Below are positions 1,939-15,541 of a stretch of DNA of 30,904 nucleotides, piece by piece. The notes under the pieces were generated by a model, which was given only the letters and a program-made list of their open reading frames with translations, did no database searches and was not told the DNA's origin. Made by a program: the position numbers and the translations under genes. This DNA comes from Candidatus Saccharimonadota bacterium. Its GTDB lineage: Bacteria; Patescibacteriota; Saccharimonadia; Saccharimonadales; JACDBH01. Within the stretch, counting starts at the first letter, position 1, and every line of letters starts with the position of its first letter. The stretch covers positions 1 to 30,904 of the forward strand of contig JAGQMT010000001.1 in the NCBI GenBank assembly GCA_020428565.1, written 5' to 3'.

Positions 1939-2010
1939 ATGTGAATTCAGGTATAGTTAGTGTTTTGTATTTTTACCTGTAACCCAAATTTAAATTATAA
2001 TAAAATATAG

Positions 2011-2040
2011 TTGACAAATATGACATATTTAGTGTACTAT
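2011..2040 (+). promoter_or_regulatory. Sigma70-type promoter for cassette D
   Basis: TTGACA (2011-2016), 18-bp spacer, TACTAT (2035-2040). Confidence 0.6.
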
Positions 2041-2121
2041 ATTACATAGAGATAGGCAATCGCCTATTTCATCCCCGACCTTCTGAGCATCAGAAGGCTT
2101 CCCCAAGCAAGGGAGAATAAA

Positions 2122-2490
2122 ATGTCGCACCTTATAGAAAAGAAAAAGCTGAAACCACTCCACTGGCGGATTATGATCACGGTTATCACAGCCTGCATTG
2201 GAGTCCTGATGTTCGTCGCTTGCATGCATCGCGATGAGCAAGAGCTCTTCGACCGACAATACATCCTATACAGTGTCGTCATACTGGTAGCAGTTACCGC
2301 CGGAGCAATTACACTTATCGCACTCTATGACAAGCCGTGGTGGTGGCAATACTACATGCTCCTGCTATCTTTCGCATACGCTGCATGTATGGCCACCGCC
2401 CCTATGTGGTCACTCGTTGTCAGCTCGGGACATACTGTAGGCATGATGCTGACAGCAGACATAGTGATATGCCGAGGCTCCTTGGAGTAG
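2122..2490 (+). CDS. Small multi-pass membrane hypothetical protein in a structured RNA cassette (cassette D)
   Basis: 122 aa with 3-4 hydrophobic segments. SD AAGGGAG at 2109-2115. Confidence 0.65.
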   Translation: MSHLIEKKKLKPLHWRIMITVITACIGVLMFVACMHRDEQELFDRQYILYSVVILVAVTAGAITLIALYDKPWWWQYYMLLLSFAYAACMATAPMWSLVVSSGHTVGMMLTADIVICRGSLE

Positions 2491-2957
2491 CAACGATGAA
2501 GCGCTAGCAATGGTCGAGGGTACGTCATCACATCAATGATGTTTTGCTGACCCTCGGCTCATTGCCCTATCTTTCACTTCTTCTCTGATTCTTATTCTCT
2601 CTTGCTTTTTTAACTTATGCGCATAGTTTATTCTATGAATTCATAAAACACATCGCAGATTATTTTTATCACAAAACCAAACCTAGCATTTTGTCCATGA
2701 CATGATATATAAACTCAATACAAGAAACTCCATAGCCTTATATAAATACAAAATAGCCTCTCCGCAATCTAAAAAGAGTCATTTGATAACTTGGTAAAAG
2801 CTATTGAAACGTCATCTGATGGAATTTTATAACTCCGCTAGAACCTTTTTGAGGAGAATTACTAGACAGCACGAGACACAAGGGACTGTCAGACCCCAAC
2901 AGCATTCAAAGTAAGTGGTTCGAGCAGGAGTGGCAACGTCAGGCAAAAAAACACGGC

Positions 2958-3449
2958 GTGGAAAGTAAAGAAGAATTAATAGCCCTACAGTCTAGAGCCT
3001 ATCGGAACTTAACATCAGAAAAGATTGCAGATAATTTTGCAGCTAACGTTTTTAAGATAAATCCACAACTCAAACAAGCAATGATGAATAACAACCTTGG
3101 CAACACAACTTCATCTGCCTCGGCTGAACATTCGGAATCTAGTCTATTGGAAGTAGATGGCCTAACACCCGAACAAAAGCAAAGAAAACGCTGGCAAGAA
3201 AATACTGATATAGCTGTAAAGGCACTTGAACAGAGGGGCGTTACTCCTGAGCAAGCTAGACTAGAGGCTAATGAACTCATACAAAACTTAACGGAGCGTA
3301 TTCGACAAATTCATGAACAAGCTTCACAGGAAGGACGGTCATTAACAAATAGCGAAAAGGGCTTAGCGGCTGGTCTCAAACAAACAATCGACGTACAAAA
3401 TAGAATTTCGGCGGTATTCCAAGCACGCCATGGACATAAAGATACATGA
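2958..3449 (+). CDS. Hypothetical helical protein, possibly the 3' part of a disrupted gene
   Basis: 163-aa ORF from GTG. The frame stays open about 35 codons upstream to a TGA with no ATG. Two TPEQ repeats. Confidence 0.5.
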   Translation: MESKEELIALQSRAYRNLTSEKIADNFAANVFKINPQLKQAMMNNNLGNTTSSASAEHSESSLLEVDGLTPEQKQRKRWQENTDIAVKALEQRGVTPEQARLEANELIQNLTERIRQIHEQASQEGRSLTNSEKGLAAGLKQTIDVQNRISAVFQARHGHKDT

Positions 3450-3481
3450 TCTATAAATAAAAGTATCTAGAGGTCTTACTT

Positions 3482-3506
3482 GTATTTGAACCTCGGGTTC
3501 AAATAC
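3482..3506. terminator. Hairpin between convergent ORF and tRNA
   Basis: GTATTTGAACC-tcg-GGTTCAAATAC, perfect 11-bp stem. Confidence 0.55.
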
Positions 3507-3554
3507 TTCCACTTACCGTCATATACGAAATTTAGCACAAGGCTAGATTCTACG

Positions 3555-3646
3555 TGGCGGAGAGAGAGGGATTCGAACACCCTCGGAACCGTTGCCGGCT
3601 CACTTGTTTTCGAGACAAGCCAGTTCAACCACTCCTGCACCTCTCC
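3555..3646 (-). tRNA. tRNA-Ser(CGA), encoded CCA, 2-nt insertion in T arm
   Basis: GGAGAGG acceptor, anticodon arm CTTGT-CTCGAAA-ACAAG, long variable arm, T arm GAGGG-TGTTCGAAT-CCCTC, ends CCGCCA. 92 nt. Confidence 0.9.
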
Positions 3647-3715
3647 ACTAGCCTAATATTATAACAGAGACAAACTACTCTATATACATTTGCTATTAAC
3701 TGCTAAACTATAGTC

Positions 3716-4120
3716 ATGCAAGATTCGATTTTTACCAAGATTATCAAAGGCGAATTGCCCTGCCACAAAATCTACGAGGATAACAAAACTATCGCTTTTC
3801 TAACAATCCAACCATACATAGAGGGTCACACTTTAGTGGTGCCAAAACTCCAGATAGACGATTTTGAGCAACTACCAACCGAAGATTATCAAGCACTATT
3901 TACCACCGTCCAGAAGGTCGCAAAGCGCATCAAAGACGTATTCAATGTCCCAAAGACCGCCGTTACCGTCTTGGGGATGGAGATACCCCATGCCCATGTT
4001 CATATTATGCCAGTAGATAGCGAAGCATCCTATTTTGAAGCAATCGAAAATCGTGCTACTATCCCTAATGAACCTGACCATCAGCAACTAGCATTAATAG
4101 CAGAAAGATTGAGGTTTTAA
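3716..4120 (+). CDS. HIT family nucleotide-binding protein
   Basis: SIFTKIIKGELPCHKIYED N-terminus, GHTLVVPK, and histidine triad PHAHVHIMP. Confidence 0.95.
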   Translation: MQDSIFTKIIKGELPCHKIYEDNKTIAFLTIQPYIEGHTLVVPKLQIDDFEQLPTEDYQALFTTVQKVAKRIKDVFNVPKTAVTVLGMEIPHAHVHIMPVDSEASYFEAIENRATIPNEPDHQQLALIAERLRF

Positions 4121-4293
4121 TGAGTAATGTAATGGTAGCGTTTTTGTTCTCACTAGGAGCAAGCGCTTGGATTTATACCAAAATGATGAAGTCAAATGGC
4201 GGACAGACCAAAAGCGCCCTGACAGTCGCAGGTGTTGTAGCGTTTATTCTATTCCTCTTCCTCTTGACTGTGCTCGATAAACTCACGAACTAG
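4120..4293 (+). CDS. 57-aa two-TM membrane protein (below the ORF-track cutoff)
   Basis: MSNVMVAFLFSLGASAWIYTKMMKSNGGQTKSALTVAGVVAFILFLFLLTVLDKLTN. TAATG stop/start overlap with the HIT gene. Confidence 0.75.
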   Translation: MSNVMVAFLFSLGASAWIYTKMMKSNGGQTKSALTVAGVVAFILFLFLLTVLDKLTN

Positions 4294-4348
4294 CCTAATA
4301 GTACTTTTTATTAGCAAAAATTCCTGACAACTGGTAATATAGTACTAT

Positions 4349-5185
4349 ATGGATGAGCAGAGTTTGGGTAGGCATCTGCAGACTGCCCGTATGAAAGCGG
4401 GGCTAACGCAGCAGGAATTATGTCAAAAAGCGAGTATTTCTTACTCGACATTGGCCAAAATTGAACGTGGAGCCATCAAGTCTCCATCGGTTTTTACTAT
4501 CCAGCGCCTCGCAGAAGTATTAAACACTAGTCTAGACCAACTCATGGGTAGTTTTGGCCCAGCTCTACCTCAAAAAGGTAGAAGTAAAAGTGGAGTTACC
4601 TTTGTGTATTTTGATATCAATGGCTGTTTGGTTAGATTCTTTCATCATGCCTTTACCGAACTAGCCGAAGAAACAGGTATGCCGGCTGACCAGATAGAAT
4701 CAACATTTTGGCATTACAATGACGCCGTGTGTCGAGGCGAGATGCCTATGGATGAGTTCAACCGAATTATGGCCGAAAACTTCAAACACATGATTGACTG
4801 GAAGCATTACTACATGAGGGCTGTCGAACCTATCCAGCAAATGCACGATTTAGTCATCTGGGCGTCACACTATTATAAGGTGGGTCTTCTTAGTAATATT
4901 ATGCCCGGCTTTATACCTGATATGCTAGGTAATGGCTTGTTACCCAATATTGAGTATGATACCATCATTGATTCATCAGCGGTAAAAACTATCAAGCCAG
5001 AGGCACAAATATTCCAAATTGCCCAGGAACACTCTGGCGCTAACTCTGGCGAAATACTATTCATCGATGACTCGAGGGCTAACATTATGGCGGCCAGTCA
5101 GCTAGGCTGGAAAGTGTTGTGGTTTGACGACTTCCGCCCAGAAGAATCCGTAGCGCGCGTCAAGCAAGCCCTAGAGCTAGCCTAG
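4349..5185 (+). CDS. XRE-family HTH fused to HAD-superfamily hydrolase
   Basis: N-terminal ARMKAGLTQQELCQKASISYSTLAKIERG. HAD motif I FDINGCL, motif II LLSN, KPE and motif IV FIDDS. Confidence 0.9.
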   Translation: MDEQSLGRHLQTARMKAGLTQQELCQKASISYSTLAKIERGAIKSPSVFTIQRLAEVLNTSLDQLMGSFGPALPQKGRSKSGVTFVYFDINGCLVRFFHHAFTELAEETGMPADQIESTFWHYNDAVCRGEMPMDEFNRIMAENFKHMIDWKHYYMRAVEPIQQMHDLVIWASHYYKVGLLSNIMPGFIPDMLGNGLLPNIEYDTIIDSSAVKTIKPEAQIFQIAQEHSGANSGEILFIDDSRANIMAASQLGWKVLWFDDFRPEESVARVKQALELA

Positions 5186-5211
5186 ACTCGGTATTTTAAA
5201 CCAAAGAGAAA

Positions 5212-5268
5212 CCCCAATTATCATTATCCGCTATACGGAACTCATTAGAGTATGAGTGATAATTGGGG
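5212..5268. terminator. Y-shaped (three-way) hairpin at the convergent end of the HAD gene and cassette A
   Basis: 12-bp stem CCCCAATTATCA/TGATAATTGGGG with two inner arms (TCCG/CGGA and ACTCAT/ATGAGT alternatives). Followed by a U-rich tract on the - strand. Confidence 0.55.
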
Positions 5269-5506
5269 GGTAGAGTGCCTTGATTGTCTGTCTATATGAC
5301 AGTATAGGTACAAGGCAGACCAGTGACGGTATTAGTATCTATGAGACACTTTGTGTATAAGCACGTACCGAAGCGCACTTCCCTGCTCGATGGACAGTCC
5401 ACAGAGCTTTGTTTCACCTCCAGGGAGAGGTTAGTTGGTTATCAGTTCCTTACTGCTAGGCGCATAGTTTGCGTAGTAGCGAGTCTATGCGAGACTCTTG
5501 GAGGCT

Positions 5507-6019
5507 TTAGCGACAGGCGAGCTCTCGCTCAACCCAGAAGTCATAGACTTCTGGGTTGTCGAGGCTCACTGCCTCGCGAGAGCGCTCGCCCGCGAGCGCT
5601 CTCGCCCTTACAAAGGCCTTGTAATATAGCCCTTCGTAAGGGCGGCCTCGCCTGTCGCGCGTGACGATAAGCGTCACGCGCCATGTTCCGTCCGCCATCT
5701 TGGTGGCGGCGATGAGGGTTCCCGAGGTGGCCGATGCCACCTCGATGTACCTCACTGGTGATTTCTCACCAATGAGGTACCACCCCCCTCCGACGTCCGC
5801 CTCCTCCACGAAGTGGAGGGTTTTTTTGTCATGGCCAGGGGCCATGACAAAAAAACGGCTCCCGAAGGAGTGGGTCGCCATGGCGACCTCCACTCCTTCA
5901 GGAGTCAAGCCGCTTGGGCAATGGGAAAACCCATGCCCAAGGGCCTTGGCAACCAGGTCCCAATCGTTCGTATAGAACACTTCGTCGAACATCATCTCCC
6001 CTTTTCGGGTCGTGTGCAT
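5507..6019 (-). CDS. Hypothetical protein with hairpin-tiled coding sequence (cassette A)
   Basis: 170-aa ORF. AAAGGGGAG lies just before the ATGs at 5995/5992, the likely start. GC-rich (35/60 G+C in 5521-5580 and in 5581-5640). No family recognised. Confidence 0.6.
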   Translation of the reverse strand: MHTTRKGEMMFDEVFYTNDWDLVAKALGHGFSHCPSGLTPEGVEVAMATHSFGSRFFVMAPGHDKKTLHFVEEADVGGGWYLIGEKSPVRYIEVASATSGTLIAATKMADGTWRVTLIVTRDRRGRPYEGLYYKAFVRARALAGERSREAVSLDNPEVYDFWVERELACR

Positions 6020-6287
6020 TTAGCATTGTTGCTAGGCTGCACGCCTCAAAGTCTCTAGTTTTAGAGCCCTTGAGCCGAAACTCAACTACATTGGCCATAG
6101 ACCAGCAATCGAGTTCCGAGCCCAAAAGCTCTAGTTACACAAAGTCAGAAAATGTTTGTATATCATAGGAACTAGCTCGAATGAGAGGCTCTTGTATTTG
6201 TACAAAGAATAGACTCCTTCCTACCAACAAACACCTTTACCGAACTAAGATAACCCAGCTTTTAATGTACGGAATCTTTGATTACTC

Positions 6288-6333
6288 AAAAATTCCCGGA
6301 GAGGCTGATGACATATCAGCCCAACCGGCAATT
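6288..6333 (-). terminator. Probable terminator of the helicase gene
   Basis: Long hairpin AATT.CCGG...GGCTGAT/ATCAGCC...CCGG.AATT followed by a T run, directly after the stop at 6338. Confidence 0.55.
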
Positions 6334-6337
6334 TTCG

Positions 6338-9300
6338 CTAACGATTACCATGATTTTTGGTAAATCTACTCTCTAGTGCAGATAGTGCCAGATCCAGATC
6401 ATCTACCGCCATAGGTATTTCGCCAAGACCATCATCAGGCGTAGGCTTATCAACAAGCTTAAGGGCATAATTGGTGTTACCATATTTTTCATACGACAAC
6501 AATACAATCACCCTTTCGCTATCTAGACGAATCTCATCTAGCAAATAAGCCTCCCGGCCATCGGCCGTATATTCTTGTGGACCCGACTCTGCCGCTACAT
6601 AGCTGTGACTGCCCAATCTGTCACGATAACCAGAATTCATTATCTGATCATACGACATCAACAAGCCAGTCGTGCTACGCAACTTCAGGTAAGGTCTCTC
6701 AACACTATCTACAGCAGCTTCGATTAGCTCATTGTCTAAATTATAGACGTCCTCTAGTAACTCATCTTCTTGACGTTCTGTTTCTTCGTCTCCGATTTGC
6801 CACGCACCCTCAATAAATTGATGGCTCTGTTCAATGTGACGAATTGCATATACTTGCTCCGATGTCAGTTGATCTGGCCAAGAAGCCACCTCGAAACTAC
6901 CAACATTTGGATCCCGTACAGATGAAGCAAAAGTTAAAGCGATTTCATCAGGATAAATCACATCCCAGATTTTATCAGAACCATCTCTATCAGCTTGCCT
7001 TAATTCTCCTGCAGAATTAACTACCCAAAAATATTGGTTGCCTGAGCCAGTTCCAATCCTTGTCCTACCTCCAAAATTTGTTAAGTAATCACCAGATTCT
7101 ATTAATTGCTGTTCGTACTCCCTCTTTAAACGCTCAGCCTGTCGTTCATGCAGTTCGGCTTCTATTGTCTCTACACCACTGTATACGTCTTCGATACGAC
7201 TATAGCTACGCTGGGCACCATCAGGCATATCAACCAAAAGTCTCAAGGCTACATTCGTAGGCAAAACAGACACATCACCATTAACAACTTGTTCCCAAGA
7301 TAAGGATATCTGAGCCTCTAAAGTTGAATCATAGGACCGAACATAATTAATCGGTACTTGCTCATCCATAACCATCATGACATCTGGATACTCACGCATC
7401 AATGCTTCGGTCCTTGTAATGTCATCTTCGTTGAATATATCATCCCAATTTAATCTGGGTGCATTGGCAAGTAGTGTGTGTAAATTAGTAATGTTATTTT
7501 CAGTCAATTGAGAAATTATCACGCTGTCAAGTCGACTCTGCAGATCTGTAGCAAACTGTGGATCAAACGTACGTGCCCAAGCTTGCAACTGATTTATCTC
7601 TTGTCTCCAATGTAGGTATTGTTGACGCAAAGGATGATTAGCACTTAGCAAAATATTCGCGAAATGTTCTTGAAGTTTATCAAAATCTGGAACAAGCATC
7701 TCTTCTCCAACAACCAAATTACCAAACAGCAAACTATGCTTATCACCAGCATGACCGTGTTCACTAAATACGATATCACCCACATCAGACAGACTAATAA
7801 GTTGTGGGGCAATCTCTGGCAACCAAGCTGGATCAACTTTACTAGCGCCCTGTAATAAGTTGAGAGTCTTAGGCCCTCGCTTGGTATTAATTTGAAGATC
7901 AAACGGAGTCGCCACCAATATATCACTACTACAAACACTACTACTTGATAGTTCACGATTTGAATCTTCTAAGGCAGAGTCATAGCTACCAGCATAGTGA
8001 TGAACCCACACCTGATCAATTAGTCCAGCGGCTATACACTTCAGTACAGCCTCTCTGTCTTCTGGCGTTAGTTCTTGAGTGCCGTCAGCACGCAACCCCA
8101 ACCGACTACGTATTTCCCTAATGCTCTGTTTTGCCGATGATACGTTCTTGCCCAAAATGTCATATTCTGACCATTTTTTATCAACACTACTCAATGCACG
8201 CAGTACATCACGCTGAGCCAAAAAGTCTGAATCTACTTCCTTTGTAAGTCGTTGCCAAGCAACATTATATTTACCGTTTTTGACAATTCCACCAGCCTGC
8301 TGAATACCAATACACTCCACCAAAGCTGATTGTACGTGCTTTGGATATTTGTGAGACTCAACAACCATACGTGCTAGATGAGTTTCTAGAGGCAACCGAT
8401 CCATCTTACGGCCTATATCAGTCAGTTCCTGATTTTCGGTCAAGGCACCCAATGTCCTAAGACGTAATTTAGCCTGTGCAATATCACCCCTATCAGGCTG
8501 ATGAAAGAAATCCATTGATTCCATGTCAAAATTACTAGCCGCCAATCGCAACATAGTTCGATCCAGTCGAGTGCGTAATATCTCGGGTGTTGGATGTGCT
8601 TCGCGCTCCTCAAACGCCACCGCAGTGCCAATGTTTTTCAAACTTGCCAACACATACTCTCCAGGCTTGGTCCTTCCAGCCCTACCAGCTCGTTGCAAAC
8701 AATCCGCTTGACTGATAGGTGCCATAAATAACCCCTCAACACCTTTGCGCTCTTCGGTACGCCTCTCTAATCCACTGTCTACCACAGCATCTATATCCTC
8801 TATAGTAATGCTAGTCTGAGCTACATTAGTAGCTAGTACAATCTTACCGCCACCGTGCTTCATGAACGCCTTGCGCTGTTCCTCTGCCGACAACTGACCG
8901 TGCAAAGGTATAATTGGTACACTAACACCACGGCTCCGGAGATCTCTCTCGACATCATCAATTTCTTTTTTGCCCGGCAAGAAGACAAGCGTATTTTTGC
9001 CTTGCTGTGCCATAGCAACGGTCTCGTCAACCAAATCCCCACCCTCCCGTCTAGCAACATCAAAGGTTCTACCCGGTACTTCTATAACAGGGGTTTGATT
9101 ACCAAAATACTGACTCAGAGCCTCGCTCTCTAGCGTTGCACTCATGGTCACTATTTTAATCTGCTCTTTTTTGGCCCATGCTAGTAGCACTTCAATATTC
9201 GTATTCCATTCATGTACTTCGTCTACTACTAGAACTTTCTCTCGCTCGACCCGATCTTCCCGACCTGCCAAAGACCGCACGACCTGTAATCCATCAGTAC

Positions 9301-9649
9301 AAAAAGTGATATCCGCATCCGCTGGACCAGATTTTTCTTTGGCCGTTCTATAGGCAACCGATATTGAATCGTCCGCTTCTTCTGCAACACGTTCGGCCAC
9401 CGTTCGAGCAGCCATAACTCGTGGCTGAGTCACTATCACTTCATAGCCAGCCTCAGCTAACATCTGTGGCACCTGCGTACTTTTGCCAGCGCCTGTTTCA
9501 GCAGTAATAACTGTTGCCTGATTAGATTCTACCGCATCAATAATTCGTTCTCGATAGGCCATAATTGGCAATTCTAGACCATCTAATATAACGTCCAGAT
9601 TATCTATCGGCTTATTATAATTATCCTGTTGCGTATTCCCTGTTGTCAT
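6338..9649 (-). CDS. HrpA/HrpB-like DExH-box (DEVH) ATP-dependent RNA helicase with a long unrecognised C-terminal region
   Basis: Motifs AETGAGKSTQVPQ, TQPR, FCTDG, DEVH, SAT, LVFLPG, PLHG, ATNVAQTSITI, QRAGRAGR, then an HA2-like LT.IGRKMDRLPL segment. 1103 aa. Confidence 0.9.
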   Translation of the reverse strand: MTTGNTQQDNYNKPIDNLDVILDGLELPIMAYRERIIDAVESNQATVITAETGAGKSTQVPQMLAEAGYEVIVTQPRVMAARTVAERVAEEADDSISVAYRTAKEKSGPADADITFCTDGLQVVRSLAGREDRVEREKVLVVDEVHEWNTNIEVLLAWAKKEQIKIVTMSATLESEALSQYFGNQTPVIEVPGRTFDVARREGGDLVDETVAMAQQGKNTLVFLPGKKEIDDVERDLRSRGVSVPIIPLHGQLSAEEQRKAFMKHGGGKIVLATNVAQTSITIEDIDAVVDSGLERRTEERKGVEGLFMAPISQADCLQRAGRAGRTKPGEYVLASLKNIGTAVAFEEREAHPTPEILRTRLDRTMLRLAASNFDMESMDFFHQPDRGDIAQAKLRLRTLGALTENQELTDIGRKMDRLPLETHLARMVVESHKYPKHVQSALVECIGIQQAGGIVKNGKYNVAWQRLTKEVDSDFLAQRDVLRALSSVDKKWSEYDILGKNVSSAKQSIREIRSRLGLRADGTQELTPEDREAVLKCIAAGLIDQVWVHHYAGSYDSALEDSNRELSSSSVCSSDILVATPFDLQINTKRGPKTLNLLQGASKVDPAWLPEIAPQLISLSDVGDIVFSEHGHAGDKHSLLFGNLVVGEEMLVPDFDKLQEHFANILLSANHPLRQQYLHWRQEINQLQAWARTFDPQFATDLQSRLDSVIISQLTENNITNLHTLLANAPRLNWDDIFNEDDITRTEALMREYPDVMMVMDEQVPINYVRSYDSTLEAQISLSWEQVVNGDVSVLPTNVALRLLVDMPDGAQRSYSRIEDVYSGVETIEAELHERQAERLKREYEQQLIESGDYLTNFGGRTRIGTGSGNQYFWVVNSAGELRQADRDGSDKIWDVIYPDEIALTFASSVRDPNVGSFEVASWPDQLTSEQVYAIRHIEQSHQFIEGAWQIGDEETERQEDELLEDVYNLDNELIEAAVDSVERPYLKLRSTTGLLMSYDQIMNSGYRDRLGSHSYVAAESGPQEYTADGREAYLLDEIRLDSERVIVLLSYEKYGNTNYALKLVDKPTPDDGLGEIPMAVDDLDLALSALESRFTKNHGNR

Positions 9650-9680
9650 AAATTTCTACTTATAATACCTGTTATTGATT

Positions 9681-9731
9681 ACTGTTTCGTCGTTTTCGAC
9701 TCATCAGAGGTGATACACATCACCTGACAGT
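9681..9731 (-). ncRNA. Type III hammerhead ribozyme
   Basis: Minus strand reads ACUGU-C / AGGUGAU-gugu-AUCACCU / CUGAUGA / GUCG-aaaa-CGAC / GAA-ACAGU: all conserved core bases, a G10.1-C11.1 pair, stems I-III and a GUC cleavage triplet. Predicted cut between 9726 and 9725. Confidence 0.93.
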
Positions 9732-10010
9732 TTGGGGTGTTGAATTTTGAGCAAAGCCCAAACACACCCCGTAGAGCACGGACATATATTAAAGAGGGGT
9801 CCGATTACCTCTAGTTCCTAACAAATTATTCAGTCCCTTATCCTTGGCTGATAGAATTATCAGTTCTTTCCTGAACCTAAAATTCATTTCACCAAGGCCG
9901 TAGACCTTACACCATAGTGTTAGCTATGGGCTTCCTCCTGCCTGTTAGCCAGACATGTCATATCACTATGACCTTTACCTCCGAGGGAGAGATAAGTTCA
10001 ACCGAGCTCA

Positions 10011-10355
10011 CTAGTTGCGTGCCAAAGCACAGCACCCAATGATTCGCCCGTCGGCATCCCTCACGGGTCCGCTCGTTGTGAGCAGATCGTGGGTGGGACG
10101 CCCCTGGGCGCGAGCCGCCGACACCGTGATGAAACTCACGATATAGGCAATTCCCTCGGTTGGCACGGGCAAGTCTTCGACTTCGCCAAACACCGTCTTG
10201 ACGACGGGTACGGCAAAACCATCGACCATCACCGCTCCGACCTGATGGTCAGATTGACGTGCCCTTGCCACTCCACCACTCGGAGCGATCGTCGCCACGA
10301 CATCATCGTCAGCAACAATCATCACCGCATGGGGAGTGAGGTTCACCAATTCCAT
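10011..10355 (-). CDS. Small NLTPH-motif protein (cassette B)
   Basis: SD GGAGG 5 nt upstream of ATG 10355. Sequence MELVNLTPH...PSG.VAR...V..LP.P....YIVS...VRDADGRIIGC..L matches a small conserved family often seen in phages and accessory regions. 38/60 G+C in 10021-10080. Confidence 0.8.
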   Translation of the reverse strand: MELVNLTPHAVMIVADDDVVATIAPSGGVARARQSDHQVGAVMVDGFAVPVVKTVFGEVEDLPVPTEGIAYIVSFITVSAARAQGRPTHDLLTTSGPVRDADGRIIGCCALARN

Positions 10356-10902
10356 TTTCACCTCCTTTTTAGTTGGCGAGCGTCTGTGGTTCCGGGACTT
10401 CCGGCAGACAGGAAAAGGTTGGAGTAAGTTACTCCACTAGGTGAATCAAGGGCGCATTGAACAAGACTACTAAGGCAGTCTACATATCATGGACACTAAT
10501 ATCAGCTAGTGGAATAACCCACTCTTTTACAGATATAAATTTAATGTACAGACCATCACATCCTAGCGATAGCCTTAGGTCCCGGTCAGTCGGTTCAGGA
10601 CTTAAGGCTGGTCAATTCGGTCAGCAAAGCCTCTCTATAAGCCTTACTAATTAACCACGCCTGTCTTTCTAAAATCATCGATACTCTGCCTATCCATCAC
10701 CAATAATCTACAATTATCAAGCTGGGAGGAGCAAGCTTTTAGCTTATGGCTCAACTGCCTAGATGTACGAGTGCTCTAGTTCTCGTATCAACAGCTCTAT
10801 CTAGAATCTATGTCTAGATCAATCTATTTAGATTCTTGGTAAGTAGGTCAAGTTGTCAATGTAATCGTTCTCAAAATGCCTCTCATTCATCGAACTGTAT
10901 AC

Positions 10903-10931
10903 ATCATACCGTAAATGTTTAAAAATGTCAA
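10903..10931 (-). promoter_or_regulatory. Sigma70-type promoter, divergent from the TrmB-like gene
   Basis: TTGACA (10931-10926), 17 bp, TATGAT (10908-10903). Confidence 0.6.
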
Positions 10932-10994
10932 TAATGTTATACGATATTCTCACTCAACAGGGGTAATTACATACTACTTTTTGTCAAAAGCTCG

Positions 10995-11023
10995 TTGACA
11001 AAATAATATTTTTTTGCTAATAT
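10995..11023 (+). promoter_or_regulatory. Promoter of a leaderless TrmB-like gene
   Basis: TTGACA, 17 bp, TGc-TAATAT, 7 nt, then ATG 11031. Confidence 0.75.
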
Positions 11024-11030
11024 AGTCAAT

Positions 11031-11768
11031 ATGACCCCCGAATTACTAGAAAACATCGGTCTCAACCATTCTCAAGCAAAGGCATATTTGGTATTAATCG
11101 AATCTGGTGCACTCACCCCTACCGAACTAGCCAACAAGATATTACAAAAACGCACTACTACCTATATGATAATGAATCAACTAGAAACACTAGGCTTGGT
11201 AGAAAAAACAACTAAGGGCACCAAAACCGCCTATGAAGCCACCAATCCCATCGCCCTAGAAAAACTATCTGAGTCACGACGCAAACAACTGCATCAAGCC
11301 GAAACCAGGGTTAAGCAAGCCATGCCCGCCCTACTCAGTTATTACTACTCCATTACAGAAAAACCAGGTATCAGGCTAGTTCAAGGCGTAGAAGGACTAA
11401 AGGACATTTATGCCGATACTTTGCGCGCTAAACAAGATATCTACTTCTTACGAACACCAGCGGATGTAGCAAAAATAGATCAAGAATATTTTGATAAATA
11501 CCGTCAAAAACGTGCTACGCTAGGCATAAAGACCTATGCCTTTACACCAGACACGGCACACAGCAGAGCTAGTTCCAATGACGACGAAAAGTTTCACATA
11601 CAGCGACAATGGATTAGCTCAGATATATATAGCGCGCCTGTAGAAATCGATGTCTACGGAGACAAGACCGCTCTACTTAGCTTTGGTGAAGATATAATTG
11701 GCGTTATCATACAAAGCCCAACTATCGCCGAGGCGATGAAACAACTCATCAGTAACCTCCCTAAGTAG
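11031..11768 (+). CDS. TrmB-family HTH transcriptional regulator
   Basis: LENIGLNHSQAKAYLVLIESGALTPTELANKILQKRTTTYMIMNQLETLGLV winged HTH, plus a C-terminal EIDVYGDKTALLSF effector/PLD-like domain. Confidence 0.85.
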   Translation: MTPELLENIGLNHSQAKAYLVLIESGALTPTELANKILQKRTTTYMIMNQLETLGLVEKTTKGTKTAYEATNPIALEKLSESRRKQLHQAETRVKQAMPALLSYYYSITEKPGIRLVQGVEGLKDIYADTLRAKQDIYFLRTPADVAKIDQEYFDKYRQKRATLGIKTYAFTPDTAHSRASSNDDEKFHIQRQWISSDIYSAPVEIDVYGDKTALLSFGEDIIGVIIQSPTIAEAMKQLISNLPK

Positions 11769-11780
11769 CTATCCCTGAGA

Positions 11781-12830
11781 TCATTCAAAATTAGACAAAT
11801 ACCGATGAATCTCTGCATCAGATTGTACAAACGAACCAACATAAGCTATAAATCTATCTATCTGGTCTTCAGATATGCCAGCAAATCTTTCTGTAAAATG
11901 GCTTCCCTCCGACCTGTGCCGAGCCAATATCTTACCAATCAAATCTCCTGGACGTGCAAAATCATCACCAACCCTAGGATCACGACCAATATCCAAGCTA
12001 AATCCCGTCGGAGACTTCGGGTCTTTATCTAGACGAATAGACAAATCTGCGGCATCAATAAATCTAGTATCGACCTGAACAGATTGATTATAACGATGAG
12101 CAGATTGTTCATTGCTGTGTGTAAATGCAAACTCAACTCTCTTTGCTGGTTCAACATCTACCCTCAATGTACCGCCATAATGATACTCATCAGGATAGAG
12201 GCCATCCTCAAGATCTGGCTCACTTTCAAATTCTGTCTCGTCGCCAGCGTACCTCCAAGTTTCATAACAACCAGCGTAAACTGCTTTTGTTCTACCATTA
12301 GTACGCATGGTGTAATCTGTCATACCAAACAAATAAGTACTCTGCTCGACAATACTTTCCTCTCCACTTACAAACCCCATAGATACAACTAATATGTTCA
12401 TAAGCGCGGTCAAATCACGCATAGCCACCACTGATTCACTCGTTGAATCGACATGCACATCAACATTCAACTCACTCCGTGCCGCCGATTCTATGATGTC
12501 ATAGGCTTCTCTCAGTGACCCACCTATCGCCATACCAATCTGAGGCTCAATACCAGCAAAACAATGCTCCAATATCGACACCGCTCGTCTCCCAGTCAAG
12601 CCTAGCTCATCTACTATACTGGACTCATGGTCAAGTCGTGCCCCTTCTCGATCAATAGCAGGATAAACAACCCTCGCCTTCTCCCGAGAAGTAAACATGT
12701 ACGGATATTTTTGCATCACACATGCAACCTCTACATCTGCGATTGCTGCCGAATCTTGCCCTAAATCCCGACTATCTGTGTCTGTGTTTTCTATAAGTGG
12801 AGCGATTTGCTCAATTACATTGCTACGCAT
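11781..12830 (-). CDS. Acidic hypothetical protein
   Basis: 349-aa ORF with its own consensus promoter. No family recognised. Confidence 0.7.
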   Translation of the reverse strand: MRSNVIEQIAPLIENTDTDSRDLGQDSAAIADVEVACVMQKYPYMFTSREKARVVYPAIDREGARLDHESSIVDELGLTGRRAVSILEHCFAGIEPQIGMAIGGSLREAYDIIESAARSELNVDVHVDSTSESVVAMRDLTALMNILVVSMGFVSGEESIVEQSTYLFGMTDYTMRTNGRTKAVYAGCYETWRYAGDETEFESEPDLEDGLYPDEYHYGGTLRVDVEPAKRVEFAFTHSNEQSAHRYNQSVQVDTRFIDAADLSIRLDKDPKSPTGFSLDIGRDPRVGDDFARPGDLIGKILARHRSEGSHFTERFAGISEDQIDRFIAYVGSFVQSDAEIHRYLSNFE

Positions 12831-12878
12831 TTTTGCATTCTTGAGTTATGGTTTTTTGTTTTAATTGCTTACATCTTT

Positions 12879-12907
12879 AATATAGCACAAAATTTGTTTA
12901 AAGTCAA
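12879..12907 (-). promoter_or_regulatory. Sigma70-type promoter
   Basis: TTGACT, 17 bp, TGc-TATATT. Confidence 0.65.
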
Positions 12908-12967
12908 TTCCGTGTGTTCCGTTGCACGTTTGCATCGACTAGCGATTGTACCCCAATGATTAGCGTC

Positions 12968-15541
12968 TCAGGCTGTAAAACTGTCTATTTCGGTGGTTAT
13001 CTGCTCTAGGCGTCGCTCGGCGTCAGTTAATTGTTGTTTAGTTTCGGCCACCAGAGCCTGCGGGGCATTATCAACGTATGATTTATTGCCTAATCGTGCA
13101 CGCAATCTCTCTACAGACAAGACTTCTTCTGTCTGCCTCTGCTCTAATTTGCCCAAATAGCCCTTAGCTACTTCTTCGGTTACAAAAACAGAGGCTACTT
13201 GATTGGTCTTGCTGAGTCTAATGCCAGAAATTTCACCAACAACTGTGGCTGACTCCAAATTAGCTAGTTTCTTGATCTGCTCTAGGTTAGACTCGATCAA
13301 ATCAGATGCCTGATATTGCAGAATCGGCTTACTGATACCTAGGTTCTTAGCTACTGCCCTCACCTCAGATACAATGCACTTAATATCCTCGAACGAGTCA
13401 GCCCTGTCGGCATCACACTTTAACACCTTAGGCCAATGTGCAACCGCCAACATTGAGTCATTCTCCCACTTGAGCGTCTGCCAAATAGTTTCAGTCGTAA
13501 AGGGCATAAACGGATGCGCTAGCTTGAGTATCACCTCTAACCCATATGCAAGTACCGAATAGTTTGGTTCTACCTTATTTGCCTCTAGGTACCAGCCAGC
13601 GAAATCATCCCAAATTGTGTGATAAACAGTTTCATAAGCCTCAGCAAACATGTATCCCTCGATATCGTTAGATACACTCTCGATAGCATGATTTAATCTA
13701 GTAACAATCCAATGATCGGCCAAAGACACGAACTTAGATGACTTACGAGCATGATAGTCGTCACCGATGACACCCTCGATATATCGAGCGATATTCCAGA
13801 CCTTGTTACAAAAATTACGACCAGCGTCCACTTTGCTTGGAGCAAAAGCTGCACTATAACCAGCACTTCGACCAGCTAACATACCCATCCGCAGAGCGTC
13901 TGAACCGTGTGTGGCCAAAATCTCGTTAGGATCAATGACATTACCAAGACTCTTACTCATCTTCTTGCCATCCTCAGCCCGAACCATACCATGCAAATAC
14001 ACATCTCGAAACGGAATCTCACCCGTTACATAGATACCGAGTACAATCATACGAGCCACCCATTGATAAAGAATATCTACACCTGTTTCCATGACAGAAT
14101 TTGGATAATACTTTGAAAAATCATCTCCTTTTGGATAACCAGTCGTGACAAAAGGCCATTGACCACTGGTGAACCAAGTGTCAAACACGTCTGGATCACG
14201 TCGATAAGTCTTGCCATCAACCTGTATAGTTTCTTGATCTACCCTATCGTCAAAAATCCAATCATCAATATCTTCGGTATTCTGAAAAGCTGGTATAGAA
14301 ACGCCCCATACAATTTGACGACTAATATTCCAATCCTTGACATTCTCTAGATAGGTAATCACCTGATCACGCTTGGCCGTGGGATAAAAACGAACCTTGT
14401 CAGCCCTCAGAGCTTCGATTGCCGGCTTTGCCAATGTCTTCATGTCGATAAACCACTGATCGCGCACCAACGGCTGAATAATCGTGCCACATTTATAACA
14501 ATGCCCTACCCTATGACTATGTTCCTCAATCTTCTCTAATAAACCTAGCTCTTCTAGCTCATCCACGATCCGTTTGCGACCTTCGTCTATTGTCAAATCA
14601 TGATACCTAGCGGGTGCTTCTAATCCAAGCAAACCATATTCGGTAATAACCTGTACCAGAGGTAAATCATGACGTCTAGCTACCTCAAAATCATTTGGAT
14701 CATGGGCAGGAGTAATCTTGACGGCGCCAGTCCCAAAACTCGTATCTACCATTTCGTCAGCCACTATAGAAATATGACGTTCGGTGAGTGGCAGAGCTAC
14801 TTGCCTGCCAATCAAATGTTTGAGTGATTCATCATCAGGATGGACAGCCACAGCCACATCACCCAGCATCGTCTCTGGTCTAGTTGTAGCAATAAGCACA
14901 AAATCTTCCGACAAATCATCACCCTCTGATACAAGCGGAAACTTGATAAAGTACATTTTACCCGGCTCATCTTTGTACTCTACCTCTATATCAGCAAAGG
15001 CCGTACCATGAAATGTACAAAAATTAACCAATCTCTCACCCCTGTAAACCAAACCATCGTTCCATAAACGCTTGAATGTTTCATAAGCTGTATTAACCAC
15101 CTTATCATCAAGAGTGAAAGCAAATTTGCTCCAGTCACAACTACTGCCCAGGGTGCGAAAAATATCATAAAACCCTTGTTTGTTATCCTGTACAAAGCTG
15201 TAGATGCCATCGTATAGCTCTTGTCTAGAGTAATCAAATCGACTCTTGCCTTCTTTGGCCAAGTGCTTTTCGTAAACAACCTGCGTCTCGAAACCAGCAT
15301 GATCAGCACCTGGTATCCAAGCCACGTCCCTGTCCTGCAGTCTGTAGTACCTAGCCAGAACGTCCTGTATGCTAAACATCAACGCATGGCCAATATGCAA
15401 GTTCGCATTAGCATTCGGCGGTGGCATAACCATCGAAAATGGCTCACCCTTACCCTTTGCTTCAAACGCCCCGCTCTGCTCCCATAATTGATAAATATCC
15501 TTCTCGTACTGACTTGGTTCATAGTTTTTTGGCAAATTCAT
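12968..15541 (-). CDS. valS: Valine--tRNA ligase
   Basis: PPPNANANLHIGH, TTRPETMLGD, FGTGAVKITPAHD, DWNISRQ, KMSKS and the C-terminal coiled-coil arm. Confidence 0.97.
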   Translation of the reverse strand: MNLPKNYEPSQYEKDIYQLWEQSGAFEAKGKGEPFSMVMPPPNANANLHIGHALMFSIQDVLARYYRLQDRDVAWIPGADHAGFETQVVYEKHLAKEGKSRFDYSRQELYDGIYSFVQDNKQGFYDIFRTLGSSCDWSKFAFTLDDKVVNTAYETFKRLWNDGLVYRGERLVNFCTFHGTAFADIEVEYKDEPGKMYFIKFPLVSEGDDLSEDFVLIATTRPETMLGDVAVAVHPDDESLKHLIGRQVALPLTERHISIVADEMVDTSFGTGAVKITPAHDPNDFEVARRHDLPLVQVITEYGLLGLEAPARYHDLTIDEGRKRIVDELEELGLLEKIEEHSHRVGHCYKCGTIIQPLVRDQWFIDMKTLAKPAIEALRADKVRFYPTAKRDQVITYLENVKDWNISRQIVWGVSIPAFQNTEDIDDWIFDDRVDQETIQVDGKTYRRDPDVFDTWFTSGQWPFVTTGYPKGDDFSKYYPNSVMETGVDILYQWVARMIVLGIYVTGEIPFRDVYLHGMVRAEDGKKMSKSLGNVIDPNEILATHGSDALRMGMLAGRSAGYSAAFAPSKVDAGRNFCNKVWNIARYIEGVIGDDYHARKSSKFVSLADHWIVTRLNHAIESVSNDIEGYMFAEAYETVYHTIWDDFAGWYLEANKVEPNYSVLAYGLEVILKLAHPFMPFTTETIWQTLKWENDSMLAVAHWPKVLKCDADRADSFEDIKCIVSEVRAVAKNLGISKPILQYQASDLIESNLEQIKKLANLESATVVGEISGIRLSKTNQVASVFVTEEVAKGYLGKLEQRQTEEVLSVERLRARLGNKSYVDNAPQALVAETKQQLTDAERRLEQITTEIDSFTA

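Follow-up and report, generated by a model that had tools for sequence, protein, structure and literature searches.

The 30,904-nucleotide stretch of DNA analysed here, called the window throughout, is a contig (JAGQMT010000001.1, our C61) of a Candidatus Saccharimonadota bacterium whose genome assembly (GCA_020428565.1) amounts to 665 kb in 149 contigs and is 68% complete; in its small size and its set of genes it resembles bacteria of the candidate phyla radiation. Positions 5507-6019 of the window hold, on the minus strand, a protein-coding gene that carries 11-13 stem-loops, arranged back-to-back and mostly perfect. We are highly confident that, taken together, this is a real gene, that it has an excess of hairpins and lies in an accessory island, and that its hairpins are specific to the lineage and subject to turnover, the tendency to form them recurring across a gene module. 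The gene and its stems are the following.

5507-6019, minus strand: protein-coding gene, 170 codons as listed, frame open
5530-5558, minus strand: perfect 13-bp hairpin with a 3-nt loop, coding for DNPEV-Y-DFWVE in the non-conserved C-terminal tail
5576-5605, minus strand: perfect hairpin of 13-14 bp, coding for ARALA/GERSR
5603-5644, minus strand: hairpin with 17-nt arms, 88% complementary, one mismatch being G-U on the minus strand
5657-5681, minus strand: perfect 10-bp hairpin, 5' arm WRVT conserved, 3' arm IVTR
5689-5711, minus strand: 8-bp hairpin, coding for IAAT/MADG
5722-5745, minus strand: hairpin of 9-10 bp (perfect 9 bp at 5723-5744), coding for IEVA/ATSG
5747-5780, minus strand: 15-bp hairpin with one C-A mismatch on the plus strand (G-U on the minus strand), coding for WYLIGE/SPVRY
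5803-5819, minus strand: perfect 7-bp hairpin
5820-5856, minus strand: perfect 17-bp hairpin with a 3-nt loop, coding for RFFVMA-P-GHDKKT
5859-5904, minus strand: 15-bp hairpin with one mismatch (G-U on the minus strand) and an inner palindrome at 5873-5888, coding for TPEGVE/THSFGS
5906-5948, minus strand: imperfect hairpin of 15-17 bp, 15-nt arms 87% complementary, coding for KALGHG/SHCPSGL

The gene contains eight perfect stems of 7-17 bp, and G-U pairs make up about 3-6% of the pairs in the long stems, which are otherwise almost pure Watson-Crick. All nine stems listed in the initial annotation of this DNA are present, within 1-6 nt of the positions given there; one of them, described as 16 bp at 5821-5855, has to be extended to 17 bp at 5820-5856, and those at 5603-5644 and 5689-5711 had been missed. 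Ordinary genes tolerate only mild mRNA structure, and the suggestion that this one goes well beyond them is borne out. Under a permutation of synonymous codons that keeps both protein and codon usage, the minimum free energy (MFE) of the open reading frame (ORF) has a z-score of -11.7 to -12.0, and for the 621 nt of 5440-6060 the z-score relative to dinucleotide shuffles is -21 on the plus and -20 on the minus strand. In scans of the whole 665-kb genome the stretch 5507-6019 ranks first for perfect-hairpin cover and also first for GC-corrected MFE, stands alongside stretches adjoining rRNA and tRNA genes, and is the only locus in the 665 kb that stands out for structure. A whole-genome DNA search with the palindromes matched the locus itself and its own arms, and no other copy. 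The plus strand of the window contains long mirror ORFs as well, because palindromes give mirror images and deplete stop codons.

The sequence is not an assembly artefact, since sources independent of the assembly agree with it: the stretch is present in Logan contigs of wastewater and activated-sludge runs from at least 10 studies, with at least 14 runs containing it, the Logan contigs of two DNA runs (X1 and X3) agree with the window sequence, and a separate ENA contig, L006, is 98.9% identical to the stretch over 1.46 kb. Strain variants are clustered at 5785-5795 and 5947-5994, with a further one at 5858 in another run. None of the 14 variable strain sites falls inside a strong stem, a count that comes from only two or three variant clusters and is statistically weak. 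Compared with L006, the gene has six synonymous and five non-synonymous codon changes.

The ORF is a real gene and has the look of a translated one. The frame, described earlier as staying open for 160-170 codons, does so for 170 on the minus strand, and GC at codon positions 1/2/3 is 0.60/0.47/0.71, a coding pattern, in a gene of GC 0.59 as compared with 0.44 for the window. The true start is likely M10 at 5992-5990, which is preceded by the Shine-Dalgarno-like AAAAGGGGAG at 6005-5996 and is also where the gene call in L006 starts. The predicted product of about 150-160 aa belongs to a conserved but unnamed accessory family. Exhaustive HMMER searching with phmmer through 1.84 billion representatives found 54 homologues at E<=1e-3, six of them at E<=1e-10, with identities of 27-44%; a word-indexed protein search gave a near-identical copy only, so that the family came to light through the exhaustive search alone, and Pfam, PHROGs and PADLOC gave no match to the ORF. 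The hidden Markov model of the family alignment, A1, scores the window ORF at 5e-39. The motifs of this alignment are MATHSxGGRxW, GGW, SATSGS, WxVTLEVP, and PYxGxYWxxFH, and its six invariant columns (G53, R55, W80, S96, S99, and G130) are all present in the window protein, which departs from the family in having T120 in place of the near-invariant P120 and YK..FV in place of the Trp/Phe-His of the last motif. Structure prediction, which had been proposed as a check, supports the protein when homologues are supplied: AlphaFold2 (AF2) with alignment A1 gives a predicted local distance difference test score (pLDDT) of 85.9 and a predicted template-modelling score (pTM) of 0.80, the single sequence without alignment giving an uninformative pLDDT of 38. 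In the model, helices pack against a curved antiparallel sheet. Searches with this fold in the PDB, AFDB clusters and the ESM Atlas, and in an exhaustive VIA-align pass (VIA wide), found nothing above background. These proteins constitute a new family with a predicted fold that is confident yet unmatched.

The N-terminal part of the family (window 5880-5940, residues ~27-55; A1 positions 13-67) weakly resembles the repeats of transcription activator-like (TAL) effectors, as in the comparison of GLTPEGVEVAMATHSFGSR with GLTPDQVVAIASHDGGKQ. The summed score to PDB entry 3ugm reaches E 9.5e-23, with no single TAL repeat being significant (i-Evalue 5 or worse), and this likeness may serve only as a lead toward nucleic-acid binding. 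Three large proteins, P0004, P0038, and P0039 (1168-1845 aa), show 7-8 tandem matches to the family domain, which therefore exists as a repeat array too.

Whether stems are kept by compensatory changes had been put forward as a test, and here the answer is negative. The comparison covered the DNA of 17 homologues, and in a codon alignment none of the 191 predicted pairs of the window is common to L038, L039 or L044, the closest hairpin-rich relatives; the hairpins therefore do not represent an RNA fold that has been conserved. For this stretch, matches in Rfam 15 are no better than chance, whether gathering or E-value thresholds are applied. These relatives nevertheless have dense stems of their own, with 14 perfect stems of at least 7 bp and z -7.7 in L038, 12 and z -9.1 in L039, and 11 and z -8.3 in L044. 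Further members reach z -8.6, -6.0, -5.0, -4.7, and -9.9. One member with z -4.7 and five perfect stems of at least 8 bp resides on L057, a 133-kb IMG/VR viral contig, where it adjoins an array of about 15 tRNA genes (4599-5321 and 5647-10224). The expectation that homologues lacking the stems would point to a lineage-specific mutational process is thus only partly realised, some homologues being stem-free and many carrying dense stems elsewhere in the gene.

The excess extends to certain neighbours of the family gene and is not a general property of the genomes. Among 48 neighbouring ORFs used as controls the mean z is -1.0 (sd 1.9), the hyper-structured exceptions being both neighbours in L044 (z -5.7 to -7.1) and, in L040, the Csx3-AAA gene, two small genes and the helicase (z -6.4 to -10.9). 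Neighbours in L043, matched in GC (0.54-0.59), have z -1.9 to +1.2. The coding sequence of the DEAH/HA2 helicase that belongs to the same module is hyper-structured in six of nine other genomes (z -5.7 to -16.2), and in the one with z -16.2 there is no 8-bp perfect hairpin, the excess coming from imperfect helices. Housekeeping genes of four helicase-bearing genomes lie at z -1.0 to +1.6 with GC 0.25-0.48. In the structured genes GC at third codon positions (GC3) is raised to as much as 0.94 inside contigs of 38-46% GC. The island L075 of genome G370 (G370:C3:74000-90500, ~2000-15200) spans about 13 kb of co-directional genes with sharp borders and is structured throughout, at GC 0.55-0.72 and MFE -0.45 to -0.65 kcal/nt; z is -9.9 for its family member and -9 to -12 for its DEAH helicase (1411 aa), and of five further small ORFs four have z -5.8 to -11.0. 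The recurrence of hairpins in homologues and in module neighbours argues for a lasting pressure or process that is tied to the module, and not for a one-off accident of one lineage. It belongs to a sporadic, probably mobile module, and neither to the host genome nor to a particular RNA fold. Selection on single-stranded structure and template switching had been offered as alternatives at the outset; the data support such a module-specific pressure or process and single out neither mechanism.

The way in which the stems sit on the protein shows that structure is bought at some protein cost, since partner arms are inserted or overwrite conserved residues. In most stems one arm codes for conserved residues and its partner for residues that are rare in the family. 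THSFGS is part of the conserved MATHSxGGR motif and faces the non-conserved TPEGVE, ATSG of the SATSGS motif faces the non-conserved IEVA, and the conserved PYEGL faces the non-conserved KAFVR, WYLIGE and SPVRY being a further pair of this kind. The conserved WRVT is paired with IVTR, which replaces the near-invariant EVP. In the 17-bp stem the 3' arm codes for GHDKKT, of which DKKT lies within an insertion relative to the homologues (alignment occupancy ~0.1), and the non-conserved C-terminal tail consists entirely of two perfect palindromes. The codon phase of the 14 helices of this gene is 2-2 in nine, 3-3 in four, and 1-1 in one. Pooled over twelve hyper-structured genes, 54 perfect hairpins are observed as against 7.4 expected under synonymous permutation, and their distribution over phases 1/2/3 is 14/27/13 as against an expected 7.3/23.7/23.0 (chi-square p = 0.004). 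There is thus a deficit of phase 3 and an excess of phase 1, as would be expected of stems filtered by amino-acid constraint and as reported for nematomorph coding palindromes (PMC6649704).

The surroundings of the gene comprise these features.

5186-5506, minus strand: 3' trailer, moderately structured (z -4.6)
6020-6337, minus strand: 5' leader, downstream of the helicase stop, with a long imperfect hairpin at ~6062-6140 (MFE prediction only)
6338-9649, minus strand: DEAH/HA2 (HrpA/Prp43-type) helicase gene, 1103 aa
9679-9733, minus strand: putative type III hammerhead ribozyme, full-length match to RF00008 (44.1 bits, E 6e-8; gathering score 48.5)
10011-10361, minus strand: Crn4b-like ring-nuclease gene, GC 0.59, z -5.6
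5186-12967, no strand: accessory island of ~7.8 kb, with tblastx synteny with genomes G012, G008, and G006

A segment of the leader, 6043-6055, is predicted to pair with 5491-5505 as a closing helix (MFE prediction only). On the minus strand the module consists of the Crn4b-like gene, the hammerhead, the helicase and the hairpin gene. In L040 a family member, a type III hammerhead, Csx3 ring-nuclease genes and a DEAH/HA2 helicase likewise lie all on one strand, the helicase being 51% identical to that of the window. The hammerhead of the window, the only one found in its genome, lies after the Crn4b gene and before the helicase; that of L040 (961-1015) lies 140 nt behind the family gene and is likewise just below the gathering score. 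Their identity over 49 nt is 80%, and the differences include compensatory ones in stems I and II. Downstream of the L040 family gene, positions 823-2232 form 1.4 kb without a called gene, which include the hammerhead as well as RNA of moderate structure on the plus strand. The product of 10011-10361 is predicted to be a Crn4b-type ring nuclease, as it matches PDB entries 9r7b (Crn4b, E 3.9e-11) and 9sma (Crn4a, E 0.005), and its gene is also hit by PADLOC model PDLC01138 (Unk_01, 4e-20). The combination of a DEAH/HA2 helicase, a hammerhead and ring nucleases is a previously undescribed gene neighbourhood, and in the literature nothing relevant was found on this module or trait in bacteria of the candidate phyla radiation (CPR).

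In three related genomes the HTH-HAD gene (4349-5185 here) is directly followed by the homologue of an 857-aa tRNA-synthetase-like protein (12968-15541 here), with a gap of 12 bp in the same-genus genome G012. Because these two genes are adjacent in relatives, about 5186-12967 is an insertion, and the hairpin gene stands at its left end. The site is variable, since its contents differ between relatives: in G008 (L036 6017-6487) the junction holds a divergent family member (HHalign 96%) that lacks the ATHS and SATSGS motifs as well as hairpins, and in G006 it is occupied by an unrelated 167-aa gene. In 19 genomes of the bacterial family no copy of the helicase was found (counts of HAD homologues across this family include G013 and G014, on which no other result rests). 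Among 401 sampled genomes of the phylum the family gene occurs in two and the helicase in 18, and both family-positive genomes have a helicase within 10 kb (10 kb apart in G370). Within the island of the window only the hairpin gene and the Crn4b gene are GC-rich (0.59 each) and structured, the helicase, a TrmB-like regulator and a 349-aa gene having host-like GC and z -0.4 to -2.7. The possibility that 5186-6337 is homologous to 9650-11030 was rejected, as the three exact 10-mers that they have in common, each with E ~1.2, are at about chance level.

Our preferred explanation, held with moderate confidence, is that these "coding palindromes" are kept by selection for a hairpin-dense sense RNA and that copying events supply the perfect stems. 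One arm would be pinned by conserved residues, and its partner would be made complementary through synonymous choices, non-conserved residues, insertions and the loss of motifs. Stems would arise by inverted copying or template switching together with selection at synonymous sites, and would be retained if the transcripts of the module work as compact hairpin-dense RNAs. The hammerhead may process these RNAs, and the RNA helicase of the module may unwind them so that they can be translated; they might also resist single-strand-specific RNases or the pairing of guide RNAs in a conflict with RNA-targeting defence, i.e., type III CRISPR and cyclic oligoadenylate (cOA). Such an armour would fit the presence of ring nucleases and a helicase. 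Two features speak for copying as the origin, namely the scarcity of G-U pairs in long stems and the insertion or overwriting seen in partner arms. What speaks for selection is that the trait recurs and that housekeeping genes do not show it. That the structured molecule is RNA seems most likely from context, i.e., the co-directional genes, the hammerhead and the RNA-type helicase. The three interior mismatches, being C-A on the plus strand and hence G-U on the coding minus strand, point weakly in the same direction (p ~0.125). In all 16 family genes compared the sense strand is the more stable (G-U pairs 326 vs 174), and the minus strand folds more stably than the plus strand, by 56 kcal/mol over 5200-6300 (G-U 35 vs 20), in a comparison that is not composition-controlled. 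The energy gap between sense and antisense was rejected as proof at the RNA level, for the window ORF shows the same gap as composition-preserving shuffles (z -0.28), and so was a count of mismatch types in extended stems as evidence on the strand, which missed long-loop stems and gave numbers that are too small.

The RNA evidence from the locus is confined to one wastewater RNA-seq library (X11), in which a 156-nt contig is identical to 5277-5428 in the 3' trailer at a word depth of 36, the flanks and neighbouring genes having a depth of 0-2.7. This suggests a stable RNA from the locus, which could be either a small RNA or a 3' fragment produced by processing; it has no Rfam match.

Several observations weigh against the selection reading. 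That trailer contig is the sole RNA-seq signal, and nothing covers the hairpin ORF. Strand and structured molecule are not proven, and that the latter is RNA rather than single-stranded DNA is something we infer; the long stems are pure Watson-Crick, and the strand energy gap of the ORF is explained by base composition. Some family members are unstructured (L040 z -1.6, L043 z -1.3, the G008 copy z -1.4), as is the helicase of the window itself, which is not hyper-structured at z -0.4 to -2.4. No hammerhead was found beside the nine other helicase loci and no Cas10 (palm domain) in the 68%-complete genome, and the link to a defence conflict comes only from ring-nuclease genes in two loci. As regards the copying step, no template-switch signature was found in the two clusters of mutations between the window and L006 (5785-5795 and 5947-5994), the best inverted-repeat arms there being 4-8 nt long with either allele.

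We consider a non-adaptive origin rather unlikely. Palindromes would then be made and kept perfect by template switching at quasi-palindromes or hairpin-directed repair in a replicative phase of the element, e.g., single-stranded or rolling-circle, and would persist as passengers, selfish or neutral, in the way suggested for the mitochondria of nematomorphs, only because their deletion would break the gene. Perfect long stems with so few G-U pairs are expected of copied arms and not of helices selected as RNA, and the placement of partner arms in insertions or over conserved residues, the turnover of stem positions between homologues, and the equal folding of both strands once composition is allowed for agree with this view, for which the discussion in PMC6649704 argues likewise in the case of perfect coding repeats. 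However, the trait is confined to one module in genomes whose other genes are unstructured, and copying alone does not explain an excess of imperfect helices such as that of the helicase with z -16.2. The raised GC3 also needs explaining, and no template-switch signature was seen in the two strain-level mutation clusters.

It is improbable that the hairpins serve the DNA, as cruciforms, a single-strand origin, sites of recombination or attachment, or protein-binding sites, and that the gene merely tolerates them. Stems that are Watson-Crick perfect and strand-symmetric, in a gene at the left edge of the 7.8-kb insertion, would suit such a role. However, the stem sequences all differ, share neither a recurring site nor a consensus and have no second copy in the genome, and homologues and helicase genes inside other islands show just as much structure. 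The scan of island ORFs revealed neither an integrase nor a Rep gene, and direct or inverted repeats of at least 9 nt were not found at the island borders. More improbable still is a recent horizontal transfer from a high-GC donor with the folding as inherited composition alone. The contrast in GC between gene and window, the GC3 of 0.71 and the absence of the island from relatives would be in line with it; yet z remains at -12 under a synonymous permutation that keeps composition, which excludes donor composition as a sufficient explanation, the GC-matched neighbours in L043 are ordinary, and 11-13 perfect or near-perfect stems are no composition effect. Hardly any credence can be given to the option, left open by the initial annotation, that this is a structured non-coding RNA in which 170 codons stay open by accident as a shadow ORF. 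The missing database matches, the near-identical copy as sole result of the word-indexed search, the poor AF2 model without alignment and the mirror ORFs of the plus strand might have recommended it, but it is refuted by the 54 homologues with their shared, invariant motifs and is also at odds with the confident AF2 model with alignment, the lack of an Rfam match and the lack of any base pair conserved with homologues.

A wider and doubtful extension would be that CPR-like bacteria and their phages carry a class of GC-rich co-directional islands for counter-defence against RNA-guided and RNA-degrading immunity. All transcripts of such an island would be armoured by hairpins written over the coding sequences, even where protein conservation suffers, with a hammerhead that processes the RNA, a dedicated DEAH/HA2 helicase that makes it translatable, and ring nucleases that disarm cOA signalling. 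Were this reading true, the gene of the window would be its most extreme example in the present analysis.

The closest described phenomenon is the coding palindromes of the mitochondria of nematomorphs (hairworms), in which perfect inverted repeats of up to 284 bp, of unknown function and suspected to result from template switching or conversion, occur genome-wide inside translated genes and are depleted in phase 3 (3-3) (PMC6649704). Common to both are perfect repeats within genes, positions that are gained and lost between relatives, hydrophilic insertions that complement hydrophobic arms (here FFV vs DKK), and the depletion of phase 3 (here pooled over 12 genes). In contrast to the genome-wide trait of an organelle, which points to a peculiarity of genome maintenance, the trait considered here is confined to one gene in this genome and to one module across genomes, and is accompanied by ring nucleases, a hammerhead and an RNA helicase as well as by a raised GC. 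Stems are 7-17 bp long and tiled back-to-back instead of forming long repeats, phase 2 (2-2) is the commonest instead of phase 1, and usually one arm is conserved and its partner not conserved or inserted, whereas palindromes of the nematomorph type would be expected to code for conserved regions in both arms.

Template switching is a known replication mechanism, and such mutations are described as creating or perfecting hairpins and homogenising their arms in coding DNA (Abraham and Hazkani-Covo 2021, PMC8604942), with clustered multi-nucleotide changes and amino-acid replacements (PMC8604942), and as giving rise to microRNA hairpins de novo (PMC10710096). Those cases are isolated events scattered over genomes, and the abstracts of these two reports describe neither a gene tiled by a dozen stems nor a trait that recurs in a gene module. 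Similar to Rickettsia palindromic elements and to insertions of the REP (repetitive extragenic palindromic) or MITE (miniature inverted-repeat transposable element) type, palindromic sequence is read through in frame; however, those are multi-copy, decaying families of one sequence, whereas the stems here are unique and single-copy. With single-stranded RNA phages and with viroid-like and Obelisk RNAs the module has in common an extremely structured coding sequence, the association with a hammerhead and the placement of genes on one strand. It differs from such replicons in that it is DNA of the chromosome, with host genes on either side in independent assemblies, and in that it forms local hairpins instead of a genome-wide rod, and no replicase was found.

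The gene thus offers a natural system for asking how far a coding sequence can bend to serve nucleic-acid structure, and whether the driver is a mutational process that makes hairpins or selection for RNA that resists nucleases or guides. Islands of this kind can be found by a computable signature, i.e., the z-score under synonymous permutation combined with an island of raised GC.

Divergence between strains is uneven along the island and its surroundings. In DNA run X1, 19 of 649 positions differ at the 3' end of the helicase (6303-6951), as compared with 4 of 865 in the region of the HAD gene (4000-4864) and 7 of 583 in that of the hairpin gene (5738-6320), a pattern which suggests recombination.

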